Assembly (NCBI RefSeq): GCF_000008665.1 | Contig: NC_000917.1 | Span: forward strand, 150,001-182,000 | Length of the DNA stretch: 32,000 nucleotides | Direction: 5' to 3' | Source of the DNA: Archaeoglobus fulgidus DSM 4304 | GTDB lineage: Archaea; Halobacteriota; Archaeoglobi; Archaeoglobales; Archaeoglobaceae | Translations under genes and position numbers: made by a program | Notes under the pieces: model-generated | What the model saw: only the letters and a program-made list of their open reading frames with translations | What the model was told of the DNA's origin: nothing | Database searches by the model: none | Part shown: positions 2,677 to 16,127 of the stretch, in pieces | Numbering within the stretch: position 1 is the first letter of the stretch | Layout of the letters: each line of letters starts with the position of its first letter

Positions 2677-3896
2677 GCCTTCTCACCCACATCTTTGAGA
2701 GGAAGAGCCTTAAGCAGAGTCAGCAGGACCAAACTCAGTACGGCAACAATTCCGACCGTTACTGCAATTTCAACTGCAGACGGTGAGTAGCTCCAGTAAT
2801 CCACGAAAACAGGCTGAGGGCTGAACAGGTCACCCCTCACCTCTCCTACAGCGATAGGATACTGCCATCCCTCGATGCTGAAGGCAAAGACGTTGTAGGC
2901 AGGAGGCATCAGTAGAAATCTGTGGAGGAGGACACCCACGTTGACAGACACGCTACCAATAATTAGCCTTGCACGGGTCGTCGCCTTGGCCAGCACGATG
3001 GCTGAGAAGAGGATAAACAGAACTTCGAGGAAGTGTATGTGGAGGTAATCTCTGAAGACAATAGCCAGAGCCTCGTATTCCAGCCCTTCTCCCCACCAGT
3101 ATCTGACGAGGAAGTCGTTGTAGTACATGAAAAGGAGAGCAGCGGATGATGCTGCAGAAATCTTGCCGAGAAGTCTGTAGGCATTTTTAAGCCTATCTTC
3201 ATAACCATAAACGAAGAGGGATGCAAGTATTACAACGGCAGGCCCTGTGGCGATTGCAGCTGCGATGAAAGTTGGGGCGAGCAGCCCGCCATACCACCAC
3301 GGCCTCGAAAGTTGCGTTGCGAGAACCCAAGCCGTCACGGTGTGGATGAGTATGGCGAAGGGGAGGGCTATCGGAGCAAGAACTTTCGCATACTTCTCGG
3401 ACTTTTGCCTTAAAGACTCTAAATCAGTCGCATCTTTCTTTAGAAAACCTAAGACTCCCCTCTCAGCAATTCTCGGCATCAGAAGAACGTAGGTGTAAAT
3501 GGCCGAAAGGAAAGCGTAGGTTGAGAGTACTATCAGGTCCCAGGGTAGAAGAGATGAGAAGTTGGGGTAAAGAAACATGTTCAGTATTCTGTCCACCCTA
3601 CCGAGGTCGGGTAGAACCATAACCATCGCACCGACAGCGAAGATGAAGGCAGTCGTTGATGCCACTGGCGCTATGGGCTTGAATTCTCTTGCCCCGAAGA
3701 TGTATATCGCAGATGACACAACAAGACCACCAGCAGCCGTTCCGACAAAAAATGCCCACATCGCAATGTAGAGCCCCCAGCTAAAGGGATTCCGCATGTT
3801 CGTTACTATCAATCCTTCCTGAAGCTGATACAGCCATGCTGCCATTCCCAGTGCTGCTAAGGCAACCAGAACCGCAACTAAAGCTTTAAACTTCAC
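2673..3896 (-). CDS. NrfD/PsrC-type membrane anchor subunit of the molybdopterin oxidoreductase
   Basis: 407 aa and polytopic. It has the NrfD-like motif WGLYIAMWAFFVGTAAGG. Its boundaries overlap both neighbouring genes, which suggests translational coupling. Confidence 0.8.
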   Translation of the reverse strand: MKFKALVAVLVALAALGMAAWLYQLQEGLIVTNMRNPFSWGLYIAMWAFFVGTAAGGLVVSSAIYIFGAREFKPIAPVASTTAFIFAVGAMVMVLPDLGRVDRILNMFLYPNFSSLLPWDLIVLSTYAFLSAIYTYVLLMPRIAERGVLGFLKKDATDLESLRQKSEKYAKVLAPIALPFAILIHTVTAWVLATQLSRPWWYGGLLAPTFIAAAIATGPAVVILASLFVYGYEDRLKNAYRLLGKISAASSAALLFMYYNDFLVRYWWGEGLEYEALAIVFRDYLHIHFLEVLFILFSAIVLAKATTRARLIIGSVSVNVGVLLHRFLLMPPAYNVFAFSIEGWQYPIAVGEVRGDLFSPQPVFVDYWSYSPSAVEIAVTVGIVAVLSLVLLTLLKALPLKDVGEKA

Positions 3897-4648
3897 AATT
3901 TCACCTCCAGTTCTGGAGAATACCTAACTTCTCCTCTTTCAGCCCTTTTCATAGGTAAAAGGTAGAACACCTTTGGCTCCGTCCCCAAATCTTCCAGCAA
4001 TCTCGTGTGTGCCCCGTCCCTCAACACCTTTGAAATCTCACTGTTAGGGTCATCGAGGTCTCCGAAAATCCTCGCATTCCCTGGACAGCCTCTAACACAT
4101 GCGGGCTTTAGACCTTTGTCAATATACTGCACACAGAATGTGCACTTTTCAACCACTCCTCTTGGTCTCTTGGGCGTGTAAACCAGCCTTCCGTCTTTGG
4201 TTCTGTGATCAATGGGATATCCGTGCCTGTATCCTTCTACGTACTCACCTTCAAATCCTGCCGCCTTGAAACCTTTCTCTACCGCCTTATCCTTATCTTC
4301 CCAGTTAAACTGCCTCACACCATAAGGGCAGGCAGTCATGCAGTACCTGCAGCCAATGCACCTCTCAAAGTCCACCAGCACAACCCCGTCCTCTCTTTTC
4401 CACGTTGCACCGACGGGGCATACCTTAACGCAGGGTGGATTATCGCAATGCATGCAGGGGACTGGGAGGTAAAGTTCAGTCAGATTGGGGTAATCTCCCG
4501 ACGGAGTTTGATGTTCTTTGCTCCCTACGGTCTCAACTCTGTGCCACCAAGTGCCCGGCGGGAGAGAGTTGTGAATTTTGCAAATAACAGCGCAGCTTCT
4601 GCAGCCTATACATCTGTTCAGGTCTATAACCATTCCATACCTCACCAT
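3893..4648 (-). CDS. Four-cluster [4Fe-4S] ferredoxin-type electron-transfer subunit (PsrB/DmsB/NrfC-like)
   Basis: 251 aa starting MVIDLNRCIGCRSCAVIC, with further CxxCxxCxxxCP-type motifs (CMHCDNPPCVKVCP, CIGCRYCMTACP, CTFC...C). Confidence 0.85.
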   Translation of the reverse strand: MVRYGMVIDLNRCIGCRSCAVICKIHNSLPPGTWWHRVETVGSKEHQTPSGDYPNLTELYLPVPCMHCDNPPCVKVCPVGATWKREDGVVLVDFERCIGCRYCMTACPYGVRQFNWEDKDKAVEKGFKAAGFEGEYVEGYRHGYPIDHRTKDGRLVYTPKRPRGVVEKCTFCVQYIDKGLKPACVRGCPGNARIFGDLDDPNSEISKVLRDGAHTRLLEDLGTEPKVFYLLPMKRAERGEVRYSPELEVKL

Positions 4649-10087: not shown

Positions 10088-10993
10088 TCATGCAGTCTTC
10101 GTTTTAACGAGCTTAACCAGCCCCTCAACCTCATCCAAAAACCAGCGCTCGAATTCAGGTCTTTTGACAGCCCTTGCTATATCTTCTTCCAGCTTAAGAA
10201 CTTTTGAGACCTCCAACCATTTTTCCCTTCTGTAAGCTATGATTTCTCCGTCATCAAAGGCTTCAAGAGCTTTTTCGGTCTCCTCCTCACTTCTGAACTT
10301 TAAGCTTGTGTATATGGCCACTCTATCCGAAACGTCACCTCTGAAGACGTAAACGCTGACGATTTTGCCGTTGATATAGCCCATGAAGTGGTCAGTGGCT
10401 TTATCAAACCCCATGGACATGAACTTCTTTTTGACGTGTTCGGGGAGGTCGTCAGTCAAACATCCACAAAGGGCCTTCAGCTTCCCTGTCACAAGCTCCC
10501 TTTCGAATCTTCTGAAGAGTTCAGCTGGAAAGCCCACCACGACCTCCTCGCTGCTGTAACCTCCGAGAACCCTCGCCCCCTCGCACAGAAAGGAGACGTT
10601 GGGCTCCCCCTCTTTGATAACATCCGCCGTTGCCTCACCGCAAACCGCTCTGCTACCGCTAAACCTTGCTACCAGTAAATCTCCAAAAACCTGCCTGAAA
10701 GCTCTTGAAATCTCCATCACCTTTTCGGGGGTAGCTATGACCAGCACGACATCGTAATCTCCCTTTTCATTGTAGGGCTCGATGAGGATGCCCTGAGCCT
10801 CAAATCCCTTCAGAGGCTCAAGAAAAAGGGAAACCTCTGCTCCAGCACAGTTGAAGGCCTTTGCAATTACCCTCCTGTTTGTCGCCTCTCTCACTGCGGA
10901 GCAGAACCTGTCCATGACTTCTCCATCCTCGGTTTCAAGCAGCTTCACTCCAACAGGGCTGTATCTGAGCTGAAAATACCTCCTGAAGCTCAA
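10088..10993 (-). CDS. DUF169-like protein with ~80-aa C-terminal extension
   Basis: 301 aa. The N-terminal ~215 aa (YSPVGVKLL..., Cys-containing core) resemble DUF169/COG2043 proteins from memory. The TTG start overlaps the SepCysS stop (TTGA) and is preceded by GGAGGTGGA. Confidence 0.5.
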   Translation of the reverse strand: MSFRRYFQLRYSPVGVKLLETEDGEVMDRFCSAVREATNRRVIAKAFNCAGAEVSLFLEPLKGFEAQGILIEPYNEKGDYDVVLVIATPEKVMEISRAFRQVFGDLLVARFSGSRAVCGEATADVIKEGEPNVSFLCEGARVLGGYSSEEVVVGFPAELFRRFERELVTGKLKALCGCLTDDLPEHVKKKFMSMGFDKATDHFMGYINGKIVSVYVFRGDVSDRVAIYTSLKFRSEEETEKALEAFDDGEIIAYRREKWLEVSKVLKLEEDIARAVKRPEFERWFLDEVEGLVKLVKTKTA

Positions 10994-12162
10994 TCTTCCA
11001 CCTCCAGGCCATATTTCTCGGCAATCTCCTTGAAGGCCTCAGCAACCCTCTCAACCTCCTCCCAGCTCAGGCCGTAAACGTTGAGCTTAACGTTCCTCGT
11101 CATTCCCGGCTGCACACCAAAAATTCCCCTCTCCTTAAGCTCGTGATAGAGGAAGTATCCCTTCCGCCTGTGCTTTTTAGCTATTAAGTTAAAGGACGGA
11201 GTTTCGAAGTTCATGAGCGTGTGGTTCTTCGGCCTCTCCCCCAGAAGCATAACACCCTCAATCTTTTCCATCTCCTCAACAAACCACCTTGCCTTCTCAA
11301 CCTCCTCCTTCCATCTCTTCACCCTCTCCTTTACTACTGGAAAGGAGGCCATAAGGGTTACAAGGGGAAGGCCGTAAACTGGAGAGCAGCCGAAAAGGGC
11401 AACCTCCTTCTTGGTGAAAGCCCTGCCGCTCCAGTTTCCCCTCACTTCAGAAACCCTGAAAACCCTTTCAGCGAACTCAAAAGTTGTTGCGAGAATTCCG
11501 ATGGGTGCTGTTGCGGCCCAGCTTTTGTGCCCGCTTGCAACAATAAAGTCGCATCCCGTTTCCCTTCCACTCACCTCCATAATCCCTGAGGTGTAGGCTG
11601 TGTTCAAAATAAGCGGAATCCCGTAATCCCTGCATATTTCCGCAACCTTCTTAGCATCTGCCAGATTCCCGTATTTGTAGTCGGCGTGGGTTAGCAGTGC
11701 AACGGCGGGATAATCTCCGGTCTCCTCCTTAACCTTCTCGAAAACATCCGTATAACTCTCAGCCTCTATCCTGAACTCAGGATAGCCCGTGTTGGGAACC
11801 TCGTAAACTCTCAGGCCATTGAGTTCTGCTGCAATGTAGGTAGTGTAGTGGGCGAGGGAGTCCACCACCAAAGCCCCCTTAAACCCGCTCATCGCCACGA
11901 ACTTCGCATGCCTCGCCCCAGCGGTGAACCTCACTTCATCCATACCGAGAAACTCCGCAACCTCTTCCTTGAACCTCTTGACTGGCGGTTTGTCCAGCAG
12001 GTCAACTCTGCCCTCAAGGCAGATATCACACATGCTGTAGCCATCCCCCCACTCTAAAAGCACCTTCCTCGCCTCTTCAGTCAGAATTCCTCCTCTTTGA
12101 ATGGGATGAACGTTAATCATTCCCTTTGATGGTCTCAGCAGTTCCATAGGCTTACTTAACAT
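10990..12162 (-). CDS. pscS: O-phosphoseryl-tRNA:Cys-tRNA synthase (SepCysS) paralog, PLP-dependent
   Basis: Strong resemblance to archaeal SepCysS. Shared motifs include LLEWGDGYSMCDIC (two Cys), GARHAKF, AHYTTY, the PLP-Lys motif ASGHKSWAA, the third Cys in LFGCS, and MASFPVVKERVKRWKEEVEKARWF. The start may instead be the internal ATG at 12147 (MELLRPSKGMINVHP), which gives an N-terminal length closer to the canonical enzyme. Confidence 0.85.
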   Translation of the reverse strand: MLSKPMELLRPSKGMINVHPIQRGGILTEEARKVLLEWGDGYSMCDICLEGRVDLLDKPPVKRFKEEVAEFLGMDEVRFTAGARHAKFVAMSGFKGALVVDSLAHYTTYIAAELNGLRVYEVPNTGYPEFRIEAESYTDVFEKVKEETGDYPAVALLTHADYKYGNLADAKKVAEICRDYGIPLILNTAYTSGIMEVSGRETGCDFIVASGHKSWAATAPIGILATTFEFAERVFRVSEVRGNWSGRAFTKKEVALFGCSPVYGLPLVTLMASFPVVKERVKRWKEEVEKARWFVEEMEKIEGVMLLGERPKNHTLMNFETPSFNLIAKKHRRKGYFLYHELKERGIFGVQPGMTRNVKLNVYGLSWEEVERVAEAFKEIAEKYGLEVED

Positions 12163-12173: not shown

Positions 12174-13214
12174 TTAAGTTTTATCCCGAAGCAGTTTCCT
12201 TCCGATGTTCAGACAGTCCAAGTAAAAGTTTCCTGAGGGGGAAAATTCGAAATCAATTTCGGAGCACATGCAGACGCACGCCGGATTCTTTGTAAACCTG
12301 AACTCCTCAAGCAGGTTGAAATCCGGCATTGGAATGACAAGGGGATAGAAGCCAATAACTTCCTTGCACCTCCTGAAACCCTCGGCAGCAGGGATATAAA
12401 TTGCCTCATCTGCGAGCTCAAAGACCGCCTCAATCTGGGCGTAGGAGGCGAAAATTCCCGGGATGAAGAGGTAAAGCTGGCTGTAGTATGTTTTTGCTGA
12501 AGGAAAAACTTTCTTCTCTGCGCTGAGGTCTTCCAGCTCTTTAAAGCTGATTTGGTGGGAGTTGCGTTTGTAGGTCTCTCCGTCGTATCCAAGCTTTTCC
12601 CTTAGCAGCCTGCCATTCTTCTCTCTCAGAACAAAGAGGGTGTCGAAGATTCTGCCGAAGCTCTCACGATTTAGGTGCAAAAGGGAGTGATGAACGAAGT
12701 CGGCGAGAAAATCGGAAATATCTGTCGTGCGGTTTTTTATCCCTGACCTTTCGGCGATACTGGCGTGGAGATTGAAGGCTGGCTCGTCGCTGCCACAAAG
12801 CTTTATGTCCGCAATGCACTGCCTTTCGACGAAGTCTTCAGCAACTAAGTACTTTCTCACCTCCCATCCCCTTTTCCTTCTTGCAAACTTTGGCATCACA
12901 AGGCTGTACTTGAATGGATTTCTGGTCGTGAAGCCGTCACACAGATACGTGAGGTCAAAACGATCAAGGTCGTATGATCTGCAGAGAACCTCGGCAACGA
13001 TATTTTCGAAGTGTAAGCCAAAAAACTGCCTCCACATACCCCCTCCACTGAAATCAAAGCTGTAATCGTCAACGTCAAAGCCAAAGGTTTTCAAAAAATA
13101 GCTCCGCGCCCTGTAACCACACCTCTCCCTCGCTCTGTACTCCTTCCTCAGGTCATCATAGCTGTTAACGTAGGGCAGAGAAAAATCAAACGAAGATGAA
13201 GTTGTCACCGCCAA
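12174..13214 (-). CDS. Hypothetical 346-aa protein, no confident family assignment
   Basis: A long ORF co-oriented with the sulfur cluster. Its start overlaps the upstream gene by 29 nt. It has a weak PD-(D/E)xK-like pattern ([14 protein letters not shown]) and a C-terminal Cys cluster (CVCMC...C). Confidence 0.5.
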
Positions 13215-13575
13215 GAACCTCTGTCAGCCCGCCGACCTTGTCCACCCATTCCGGTAGCTCATCCTCTCTGAGACCGAAAAGCTCCATGCTGCCGGAGCAC
13301 GCAATGATTCGCATCCGTCCGAACGACTTTCCGAGATTCACAAGTTGCTCCAGCTCTCTCAAAATACCTCTTTTGATGCCGCTCTCAATTGCCTGTCTTT
13401 CCTCATCTCCATCGAAAACCTTCTCTCCTCTGCATATATTTCTCAGAGCCCAGTAGGTGAGAAAAACCTGCACTTCCTCGCCCATTGATGCGAGAACCGA
13501 TGCTATGCTGAATGCATGGTAAATTCTGTCCCACTGTCCGCTGTGGACTATGATTCCGTTAATTCTGTCAGACAT
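13186..13575 (-). CDS. DsrE/DsrF-like sulfur-relay family protein (COG2210-type)
   Basis: [25 protein letters not shown]...[12 protein letters not shown] shows a DsrE-fold pattern with a conserved Cys. I prefer ATG 13575 over the tracked GTG 13584 because a TATA-like box and the palindrome lie directly upstream. Confidence 0.7.
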
Positions 13576-13609: not shown

Positions 13610-13798
13610 TCAGAGCAACCTTCTCGTTCCGCTCTTCAACTGCTCCTGCCTTCTCATCCACCCCGCCTTCCACTTCTGGTAGCAGCCTCTGCTGCAGAAG
13701 GTTACAGGGTGGTCAACGCAGCAGGTTTTGACAACAATCGGGTCCCTTGCGATTTTACCGCAGACATCACAGCGATGCTTTGCCGTACTCTTGTCCAG
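13610..13798 (-). CDS. TRASH / zf-FCS-type metal-binding domain with no canonical start codon; probably the C-terminal part of the upstream HTH protein
   Basis: This is not in the ORF track. The minus-strand frame reads ...FELDKSTAKHRCDVCGKIARDPIVVKTCCVDHPVTFCSRGCYQKWKAGWMRRQEQLKSGTRRLL and stops at 13610-13612. The pattern CxxC-x21-CxxxC matches the TRASH signature C-X2-C-X19-22-C-X3-C. The frame is open back to 13900 but has no ATG, GTG or TTG ahead of the domain. Confidence 0.55.
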   Translation of the reverse strand: MDKSTAKHRCDVCGKIARDPIVVKTCCVDHPVTFCSRGCYQKWKAGWMRRQEQLKSGTRRLL

Positions 13799-13799
13799 C

Positions 13800-14138
13800 T
13801 CAAACGGAATACATCTCTTCCTCGATGAGCCCCTCCTCTCTGAGAATCTCGCAAACTCTGCAGAGGTAATCCACCTCGTCTTCGATGGTAATTCTTCCTG
13901 CTACGAGGTCATCCACGAGCTCTCTTACAATTCTCTTCGCCCCATCGGATTTCTTTATGATGTCCAGCCCCCTCTGTCCCCTTTTGCTCTTGAGGTACTG
14001 CGAAACTGCTGCCTGTGTCAACCCGAGCAAATCTGCAACATCCTTTACCCTGTAACCTCTATCTATTAGCTCAAGCGCAACCTTCGCCCTCAGGGCGGGG
14101 AGTACGTATTTCACCATCATCACGCAGTGCGGTTTCAT
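13800..14138 (-). CDS. Small HTH transcriptional regulator (COG2522-like)
   Basis: 112 aa with a helix-turn-helix segment (VKDVADLLGLTQAAVSQYLKSKRG). The start lies 3 nt after the iscU stop. It is embedded in the sulfur/Fe-S operon. Confidence 0.7.
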   Translation of the reverse strand: MKPHCVMMVKYVLPALRAKVALELIDRGYRVKDVADLLGLTQAAVSQYLKSKRGQRGLDIIKKSDGAKRIVRELVDDLVAGRITIEDEVDYLCRVCEILREEGLIEEEMYSV

Positions 14139-14141
14139 GGC

Positions 14142-14603
14142 TCAAGCCTCACAATACTCTCCGTGGTCGTCCATCTCACCCTTCTCCATCTTCTCAAGTT
14201 CCTTTTCCAGACCTAACTCTTTTATCTTATCAATTTTTCCATTTTTTCTAAAGTAGTCAACTATTGCCCTCCTCAGCGCATCTGCGGCCAAGTTGGAGCA
14301 GTGCATTTTCTGCTTCGGCAAACCGCCAAGGGCTTCGGCAACAGCATCTCTTGTAATTTTCAGAGCTTCCTCTATAGTTTTCCCCTTCGCCATCTCAGTG
14401 GCCATGCTGCTGGTTGCAATGGCAGCAGCGCAGCCAAAGGTCTGGAACTTGATATCCTCAATTCTGTTGTCCTTCACTTTAATGTAAATGGTCATCAAAT
14501 CCCCGCAAACTGGATTGCCGACAGTTCCTACACCATCAGCATCCTCAATTTTTCCAACATTCCTCGGATTCTGGAAGTGGTCGAAAACCTTATCACTATA
14601 CAT
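14142..14603 (-). CDS. iscU: IscU/NifU-type Fe-S cluster scaffold with acidic/Lys-rich C-terminal tail
   Basis: MYSDKVFDHFQNPRNVG...GNPVCGDLM...FGCAAAIATSS...MHCSNLA carries the three scaffold Cys. ATG 14603 is preceded by GGAGGTGA. The tracked start at 14612 is a GTG. Confidence 0.9.
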   Translation of the reverse strand: MYSDKVFDHFQNPRNVGKIEDADGVGTVGNPVCGDLMTIYIKVKDNRIEDIKFQTFGCAAAIATSSMATEMAKGKTIEEALKITRDAVAEALGGLPKQKMHCSNLAADALRRAIVDYFRKNGKIDKIKELGLEKELEKMEKGEMDDHGEYCEA

Positions 14604-14608
14604 AGCCC

Positions 14609-15757
14609 TCACCTCCTGTAGAGAGGAGACATGCTCCTCAGCCTCTCAATCACGCCCGGCAGCACCTCAAGCAGCCTGTCAACATCTTCGTCAGTGTTGT
14701 ATCTGCCCAGCGTCAAAAGCAGAGTGCCGTGCGCCTCCTCATGCTTCAGCCCACACGCCATGAGAACATGGCTTGGCTGCAAGGTTTTTGAGCTGCACGC
14801 CGAGCCGGTTGAAGCCTGAATTCCCGCCATGTCAAGGCTCAAAACGATTGACTCTCCCTCAATGTAGCTGAATCTCACGTTTACATTGTTGGGCAGCCTT
14901 TTTTCAGGATGGCCGTTTAGGTAGCTTTCCTCAATTTTCAGAACGTTATCGATTATCCTATCTCTCAACCTTCTGAGCCTCCCAGCCTCCTCTCCCCACT
15001 CCTTTGCGGTGATTTCAGCGGCTTTACCAAATCCAACTATCGCAGGAACGTTTTCACTACCACTCCTGAGCCCTTTTTCCTGCCCACCTCCGAGAATTAT
15101 CGGCTGCAACCTCACTCCCTGCCTTACCCAAAGCGCCCCCACTCCTTTGGGGCCGTAAATGTCGTTGCTTGAAATAGTCAGCATATCAGCACCGATCTTC
15201 TCAACATCCACCTCAATTTGCCCGAGAGAGGCTGTAGCATCAACGTGCAGAGCTGCTCTACCGTTAATTATTTCTGAAATCTCCTTTATGGGCTGAATCG
15301 TTCCAATTTCGTTGTTTGCATGCTGAACAGAAACAAGAATCGTGTCTTCCCTGATTTTCTCCTCAATAAATTCAAGGTCGACGGTGCCGTATTTGTCCAC
15401 TGGGATGAATTCAACCTCAAATCCCTGCTTCTGAAGATACTTTGCCGGATTTATGACGGACATGTGCTCAATTGATGAAACGAGAACGTGCTTACCCTTT
15501 CTGGCGTTTCTCATCGCATATCCAATGAGAGCGAGGTTGTTGGACTCCGTGGCACCTGAGGTGAAAACGATGTCCCCGCCACCACCATTTATCAGCTCCG
15601 AAATCTTCCCCCTTGCCTCCTCAATCACCTCTCTTGCTTTAAAGCCGTAGGAGTGGACTGAGGAAGGATTTCCGAAGTGCTCGGTCATGTAGGGAAGCAT
15701 TGCTTCAACAACCCTCTCATCCACAGGCTTTGTGGAGGCGTAGTCAAAGTAGGGCAT
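14609..15757 (-). CDS. iscS: IscS/NifS-like class V aminotransferase-fold protein in which the PLP-binding Lys is replaced by Asp
   Basis: From [16 protein letters not shown]... (ATG 15757, preceded by GAGGTGGTGG) the protein is 382 aa. The Cys loop GSACSS is present. The canonical S-x-H-K-x-x-G-P-K-G motif reads [10 protein letters not shown]. The tracked upstream start (15823) would overlap the preceding gene. Confidence 0.9.
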
Positions 15758-15767
15758 TTCCACCACC

Positions 15768-16127
15768 TCAGAAATAGAGCACACCATCCGCCTCAAGAAC
15801 GAGCTGGTTGAGCGTTGCAGCACCTACAATCTTGACACCATCAACAATCTCTCCCTTATCAATCCCAAGGAGTTCGGAGCTTCTGTCGCAAACCATCATC
15901 TCAACCCCGCTTTCCCTTGCCTGTTTCATTAACTCACTCAGCGGCGGAAAGTTTCCCATCTTAATTTTCTCAGCATTATCCTTTTTAACAACTGTTACAC
16001 CCTTGATAACAAAGTAAATGATTGCATCATCTCCCATGGCCTTGGCGGTCATTGCGAGGACGAAGGGAGCGTAGAGCCTTTCGGGAGTGTCGATACCGCT
16101 CGTCTGAACGTAAAGCAGCTTCGCCAT
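15768..16127 (-). CDS. DsrE-family sulfur-relay protein
   Basis: 119 aa. [25 protein letters not shown]...MMVCDRS fits the DsrE fold. GGAGGTGA lies upstream, and the gene abuts the tusA-like stop. Confidence 0.75.

Follow-up and report, generated by a model that had tools for sequence, protein, structure and literature searches.

An HTH regulator gene of Archaeoglobus fulgidus DSM 4304 and the Cys-rich reading frame that leads out of its 3′ end are, with high probability, two overlapping genes, the second of which carries in this lineage an ATT in place of its ATG start codon; we read this allele as a natural knock-down or knock-out, any residual product of which would start from AUU. Directly observed are the gene pair with its overlap, the purifying selection that acts on it between species, the change of ATG to ATT and the recurrence of that change in independent assemblies. 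The window, that is, the whole stretch of DNA that was analysed, comprises 32,000 nt of the DSM 4304 genome (NC_000917.1, positions 150,001–182,000), and the locus lies on its minus strand with the following features.

13800..14138 (-): HTH regulator gene, 112 aa (AAB91048.1 / WP_010877696.1 / UniProt O30053)
13610..13810 (-): small Cys-rich (TRASH-like) ORF, 66 codons plus TGA, first codon ATT; orthologues P0033–P0036 and P0065–P0078
13800..13810 (-): HTH/small-ORF overlap, 11 nt, TAT TCC GTT TGA versus ATT CCG TTT GAG
13808..13810 (-): ATT where orthologues have the ATG start, from sequence comparison
13786..13819 (-): polymorphic patch, 34 nt, with linked substitutions, from comparison with DSM 8774 and GCA_900069765.1
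13682..13771 (-): Cys motif C14-x2-C17-x12-C30C31-x7-C39-x3-C43, in agreement with the TRASH pattern
13819..13823 (-): GAGGA, a Shine–Dalgarno-like purine run approximately 9 nt upstream of the ATT, seen in the sequence and putative in its SD role
14142..14612 (-): NifU/IscU-like scaffold gene, directly upstream of the HTH gene
14609..15757 (-): NifS/IscS-like cysteine desulfurase gene
13186..13575 (-): DsrE/DsrF-like gene, 34 nt after the end of the small ORF

The HTH protein encoded in the window is exactly identical to the DSM 4304 entry (AAB91048.1, WP_010877696.1, O30053). Its ORF ends in ...EEGLIEEEMYSV (...EEEMYSV), followed by TGA at 13802–13800, and the +1 frame continues past this stop as ...RKRC-IPFELDKSTAKHRCDVCGKIARDPIVVKTCCVDHPVTFCSRGCYQKWKAGWMRRQEQLKSGTRRLL-TGA, with its own stop at 13612–13610. 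The first-pass annotation had pointed out that a +1 frame with CDVC-x21-CSRGC follows the HTH stop, and that this frame is open from about 13900 with no ATG, GTG or TTG before the first Cys. Both observations were borne out: the Cys spacing is exact, the frame opens after a TAG at 13903–13901, and upstream of its first Cys codon it contains none of the three start codons. The near-cognate codons in this interval, listed exhaustively, are ACG at 13879, ATT at 13870, ATT at 13810, CTG at 13798 and ACG at 13786. As its most economical reading the annotation had proposed one ancestral HTH–TRASH gene that a 1-nt indel, somewhere from 13800 to 13835, had split in two. That the two frames abut is in keeping with such a history, as is the fact that other families of archaeal regulators, such as CopR, do contain HTH–TRASH fusions (PMC7830388).

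Comparison with relatives speaks for a different history. A homologue search with the conceptual HTH–TRASH fusion protein as the query retrieved 32 protein homologues of 98–134 aa, all of which span the HTH part only, and across 80 related genome loci the HTH ORF measures 96–140 aa from the start of the match, save for one partial-match outlier; a fused TRASH motif was found in none of these 32 proteins or 80 loci. In the closer relatives, where the tail aligns, the HTH protein terminates in YAV, HAV or YSV. The G4 run near 13836–13846, which had been put forward as the indel site, cannot be one, because the HTH frame 3′ of the run (GLIEEEMYSV, then stop) still aligns with native orthologue C termini. 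By these comparisons the stop of the HTH gene is native, and the gene is complete and not truncated.

The HTH protein itself is poorly matched by known families. Searches against Pfam and NCBIfam gave only sub-threshold ArsR/XRE-type matches; the best Pfam matches, HTH_5 and HTH_23, fell below their cut-offs, as did an HTH_AsnC-type match (E = 0.057). The AF2 model (pLDDT 85) is all-helical, with tail residues 108–112 disordered, and searches of the PDB by sequence and by fold gave nothing significant. A literature search for AF0184 / O30053 found nothing relevant. In the family alignment C93-x2-C96 is invariant, and most members also have C5; we noted these three Cys residues together with the position of the gene directly after nifS–nifU in this clade (window 13800–14138). 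The protein may act as a thiol-, metal- or Fe-S-sensing regulator.

Relatives carry the Cys-rich frame as an independent gene that has an ATG of its own. A gene of 62–66 aa starting MPFELD... is present in A. fulgidus DSM 8774, in A. neptunius and in six or more MAG lineages; its ATG is placed 8 nt ahead of the HTH stop, generating an 11-nt overlap, a geometry that is kept in all orthologues. The orthologue DNA reads TAT GCC GTT TGA (Y A V stop) in the HTH frame and, one base on, ATG CCG TTT GAG (M P F E). L001–L004, L110, L128, L135, L083/L084 and L157 all read ...TATGCCGTTTGA..., which encodes MPFELD... in the +1 frame. The genes are called at 3001–3339 (HTH) and 3329–3520 (63 aa) in DSM 8774 (L083) and at 3676–4011 and 4001–4201 (a 66-aa hypothetical protein) in A. 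neptunius, in both cases with the 11-nt overlap. In the Archaeoglobus MAGs L001–L004 the peptide occupies the same +1 frame with 79–92% identity, and between species it is 79–92% identical with DNA that is merely 75–85% identical. Outside the overlap, dN/dS of the small ORF between species is 0.02–0.16, with dS often saturated, and such values mark it as a real protein-coding gene under purifying selection between species, well beyond a match by chance. The first-pass annotation had made its case depend on conservation of the TRASH-like frame at the protein level, and this part of it held.

A scan of metagenome DNA for the junction yielded three more examples, which were ATG alleles only. In a profile search that covered 1.84 billion representative proteins, only 25 relatives were found, nearly all of them free-standing proteins of 48–82 aa that begin MP[FLYQ]... 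or MRC... directly ahead of the first Cys; one of them stands without an adjacent HTH gene. The free-standing genes of distant family members as a whole span 46–82 aa. The sole long member, P0045 (181 aa), was rejected as an HTH fusion: its N terminus is unrelated (hhalign probability 0.2%). Two further members, P0041 and P0057, match the family up to approximately residue 38–40 and then continue in unrelated tails, which fits frameshifted copies or assembly errors. We also observed in Archaeoglobus sp. UBA230 a second, different TRASH-like ORF (CDYCGK...LCCRTC; L004 3656–3772 (-)), which lies immediately beyond the small gene and is encoded on the opposite strand.

A split fusion gene is thus confronted with 32 proteins and 80 loci that hold no fused homologue, with an HTH C terminus that is native up to its stop, and with a +1 offset, an 11-nt overlap and an own ATG in every orthologue; the window, moreover, differs from the ATG alleles without any indel. 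Two separate orthologous proteins, with a proper start for the TRASH ORF, had been named in advance as the finding that speaks against a split gene. This is what the orthologues encode: a separate HTH protein and a TRASH ORF of 62–66 aa with a proper ATG, and not a single ORF of approximately 170 aa. The split-gene reading therefore fails, and we hold it to be extremely improbable.

The Cys motif of the window peptide, CDVC-x21-CSRGC (C-x2-C-x21-C-x3-C), agrees with the TRASH definition C-x2-C-x19–22-C-x3-C (Ettema 2003), and all four motif Cys are invariant in an alignment of five orthologues. The 'clean TRASH signature' claimed by the first-pass annotation stands as a motif pattern but not as a Pfam call on the window peptide, which matches Arc_trans_TRASH (PF08394) with E = 2.4 and 8.8 bits against a gathering cut-off of 27. 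Weak matches to the same family occur in four of five close orthologues (best E = 0.037); P0037, a distant family member (E = 8e-18 to the family profile), passes PF08394 with 31.9 versus 27 bits; and multi-repeat relatives strongly match TRASH and zf-FCS. The AlphaFold (AF2) model of the small protein (pLDDT 70.6) shows a small β-hairpin zinc knuckle and, after it, a long basic helix, and its top Foldseek matches in the PDB are L24e chains (TM 0.5–0.6, rmsd 1.3–1.6 Å over approximately 41 residues, E ~1). L24e is the structural relative first cited for TRASH. The motif, the Pfam pass of P0037 and the L24e-like fold of the model indirectly support a TRASH-like assignment of the small protein, which would be expected to bind metal through its Cys motif.

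The ATG of the small gene is lost in DSM 4304 through a change of G to T on the coding strand at 13808, which converts ATG into ATT and, in the HTH frame, A111 into S. The first-pass annotation had listed initiation at CTG or ATT as an alternative to a split gene. The ATT at 13810–13808 lies exactly at the orthologous ATG, and ATT initiation is therefore the sole route to the protein that needs no frameshift; the CTG does not coincide with the start of the orthologues. The substitution belongs to a patch of 34 nt with 5–7 linked substitutions, and the changes beside it replace a GGA codon of the HTH frame by ATG and thereby remove the GAGG nearest the start, relative to the DSM 8774 allele. 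Over 3,509 nt the window is 99.69% identical to DSM 8774, and 7 of the 11 differences fall within 13786–13819; with GCA_900069765.1 it shares all but five positions in 3,390 nt, and the five differences all lie inside the same interval. Relative to the ATG alleles, the window carries substitutions only.

The ATT patch is found, in identical form, in ENA ERZ926311, JGI 3300030446 and Logan ERR9765742 (L147, L151 and L152), which are 100% identical to the window over 2.2–2.4 kb, and also in the Logan contigs L081 and L082, whose backgrounds are approximately 97% identical to it (approximately 3% diverged). Nine other A. fulgidus-like assemblies carry the ATG allele. A sequencing or assembly error, with G as the true base, might be suspected, as the HTH protein encoded in the window matches the DSM 4304 genome record and a single record can hold base errors. 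The same ATT with its linked substitutions, however, stands in five other assemblies (ENA, JGI and Logan), three of which show 100% identity with the window across more than 2 kb, so that ATT is not a sequencing error, and we give this explanation practically no weight. The comparison indicates that ATT is a segregating natural allele.

Several features of the surrounding DNA were recorded alongside. Differences among A. fulgidus assemblies are packed in short dense patches (13786–13819, 13880–13968, 14982–15131 and 15733–16083) with identical DNA between them, and in L082 approximately 31 differences fall in a 90-nt segment of the HTH gene; these dense patches look like short-tract recombination between lineages. 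The two independent contigs L081 and L082 both break a few bases past the patch (window ~13792–13795), which suggests mixed alleles in those samples that split the assembly graph. A paralogue as donor of the patch was considered and dropped, only a single HTH homologue from A. fulgidus having been found among the protein homologues. A template-switch origin from a quasi-palindrome is likewise unsupported, because its arms as DNA are not perfectly complementary. An RNA hairpin spotted by eye (UGUAUUC/GAGUACG, a 7-bp stem around the AUU that takes in five patch substitutions) was not chosen by ViennaRNA, and ViennaRNA folding of the junction was, for all alleles, no better than that of shuffled sequences (z-scores +0.8 to -1.0). 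DSM 8774 (L083 from 3509 onward) diverges abruptly from the window (from 13630 downward) in the last codons of the small ORF; there the small ORF ends ...QLKSEAG and is followed by a 60-aa ferredoxin, TusA and a sulfite-reductase-like gene, where the window and other species have a DsrE-like gene instead.

The geometry of the pair suggests how the small gene could be translated. The genes are co-directional, and in all orthologues the downstream start overlaps the upstream stop by 11 nt. Overlapping gene pairs coupled by termination–reinitiation have been shown experimentally in Haloferax and Escherichia coli (PMC6728339), and overlaps of -11 form a recognised phase-1 class (PMC10666635). By analogy, the 11-nt overlap, a typical feature of coupled pairs, and the purine-rich tail of the HTH gene are consistent with such coupling. 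In the proposed mechanism, the HTH gene terminates at its native stop, and the small protein is encoded in the +1 frame from the ATG 8 nt earlier, on which, in ATG strains, a ribosome that finishes the HTH gene would restart. In the DSM 4304 lineage, the short patch of linked substitutions made ATG into ATT and took away the nearest GAGG. In the part of PMC10666635 that cites Hecht 2017, the initiation efficiency of ATT, measured in E. coli, is approximately 0.3% of that of ATG, a value that supports the reading of small-protein synthesis as strongly reduced or abolished in the ATT allele. Any residual product would start at the AUU, from ribosomes terminating at the HTH UGA, and would amount to a small fraction of the level reached by the ATG allele.

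A milder reading is that in this hyperthermophilic archaeon the AUU might truly serve for coupled restart: it would be an efficient, bona fide start that gives useful levels of the small protein in DSM 4304, and the allele would merely tune the TRASH:HTH ratio. In Haloferax Ribo-seq data, approximately 30% of the putative alternative initiation sites are near-cognate codons (PMC7261190), the upstream GAGGA is retained, and the start lies no more than 8 nt from the HTH stop, so that terminating ribosomes would be brought to it (PMC6728339, PMC10666635). Beyond the patch, ATT and ATG alleles do not differ in the small ORF, and in the fully recovered ATT lineage (the window and the three 100%-identical contigs) the ORF carries no further lesion. 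Its intactness fits continued use as well as very recent loss; no decay is visible in the ATT ORF, and the time is too short for decay to show. The allele is found in three genetic backgrounds, and its persistence in several samples and on two diverged backgrounds means that it has no strongly deleterious effect and might function fully.

Against an efficient AUU stand the very low activity of ATT where it was measured, the retention of ATG by all other species and by most A. fulgidus assemblies, the removal of the nearer GAGG by the same patch, and other lesions of the gene in relatives. In L153, an ATG allele (Logan SRR23823800), codon 43 has changed from TGC to TAC, which replaces the last Cys of CSRGC by Tyr; the C terminus of the small gene is replaced in DSM 8774; and P0041 and P0057 are apparently frameshifted. 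Such lesions suggest that the small gene is dispensable, although the strong selection between species and the persistence of the ATT allele in several samples would argue against dispensability. We consider an efficient AUU start unlikely, at perhaps one chance in five, and favour a knock-down or knock-out.

The protein could also be reached by programmed +1 frameshifting at GUU-UGA-G, which would join the HTH to the TRASH part (...MYSV-ELDKS...), at least in ATT strains. A codon before an in-frame UGA is the classic setting of a +1 shift, as in prfB and antizyme. This arrangement is present here, and CCGTTTGA is invariant across species. That invariance is, however, fully accounted for because CCGTTTGA is dual-coding, for AV-stop and for MPFE; moreover, tRNA-Val (GUU) re-pairs poorly on UUU, no SD occurs at a prfB-like spacing (about 3 nt), the folding z-scores given above reveal no stimulatory RNA structure, ATG strains need no shift and there are no fused relatives among the 80 loci. 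Frameshifting, which the first-pass annotation had offered as another alternative, is on these grounds very improbable, and equally so is its corollary, that ATT strains shift +1 without restart to make a fusion of approximately 175 aa, which would render A. fulgidus polymorphic for a two-protein versus a fused regulator.

The gene order in the window is tusA, dsrE, nifS, nifU, HTH, small ORF, dsrE-like, a 346-aa gene, a SepSecS-like aminotransferase and DUF169, and up to and including the small ORF this order is shared across the A. fulgidus-like clade. A general link between the HTH gene and nifS/nifU was rejected: NifU lies near the HTH gene in 5 of 80 loci, those of the A. fulgidus-like clade only. 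In the Bathyarchaeia-type loci L019, L020 and L028, a homologue of the small protein is encoded on the strand opposite to the HTH gene, at a distance of approximately 0.1–1.3 kb. The HTH and small proteins may plausibly be functional partners, and the small protein may be linked in function to the HTH gene or to the nifS–nifU/DsrE sulfur and Fe-S genes. Further downstream, the 346-aa ORF (12174–13214 (-)) has no Pfam match and overlaps the DsrE-like gene at the latter's end; beyond it lie the genes for a SepSecS-like PLP enzyme (10990–12162 (-)) and a DUF169 protein. This block is kept together with the DsrE-like gene in all ten of the further contigs that were retrieved via the exact downstream DsrE-like protein.

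The M-start form of the small protein is missing from the protein collection for DSM 4304, and the gene appears to be unannotated there, likely because gene finders demand ATG, GTG or TTG. The protein of the ATG allele is held under several accessions, one of them with the UniRef name 'TRASH domain-containing protein'. The annotation of the type strain thus appears to lack a conserved small Cys-rich protein that is annotated in sister strains. DSM 4304 (ATT) versus DSM 8774 or GCA_900069765.1 (ATG) constitutes a near-isogenic natural experiment, and the ATT/ATG pair could be used to study coupled restart at AUU in a hyperthermophile and the role of a small TRASH protein beside nifS–nifU/DsrE genes. 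The locus also cautions that an HTH gene followed by a TRASH frame is not by default a broken fusion. The protein is of a known kind and its start-codon variant is a natural one; no major concept is altered.

Set beside known systems, the locus resembles several without coinciding with any of them. With termination–reinitiation pairs it shares co-directional genes, a short phase-1 overlap (-11) and a purine-rich, SD-like run in the upstream gene; unlike in those pairs, the putative restart codon in DSM 4304 is AUU and not AUG, GUG or UUG. The small protein has the Cys spacing and FCS motif of the TRASH/FCS treble-clef zinc fingers (PF08394, zf-FCS PF06467 and YHS PF04945; L24e fold), and its family goes beyond the TRASH definition in two respects, an additional CC pair that is invariant and a basic helix (W-x3-W-x2-RQEQ) that is conserved at the C terminus. 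Its closest counterparts are the small proteins of DSM 8774 (AIG97002.1, AFULGI_00001660; 'TRASH domain-containing protein' in UniRef), which is 98% identical over the shared 58 residues, and of A. neptunius, both encoded in the same nifS–nifU–HTH–small ORF locus with the same 11-nt overlap; the small genes of DSM 8774 and A. neptunius start with ATG and that of the window with ATT, and DSM 8774 has a replaced C terminus and other downstream genes from window ~13630. As in the HTH–TRASH metalloregulators CopR/CopT, in which an Lrp-like HTH is fused to TRASH, an HTH and a TRASH-like domain are encoded together here; in contrast to CopR/CopT, they form two polypeptides, whose genes start and stop separately in every orthologue, the HTH is not of the Lrp type, and the neighbouring genes belong to sulfur and Fe-S metabolism, not to copper export.
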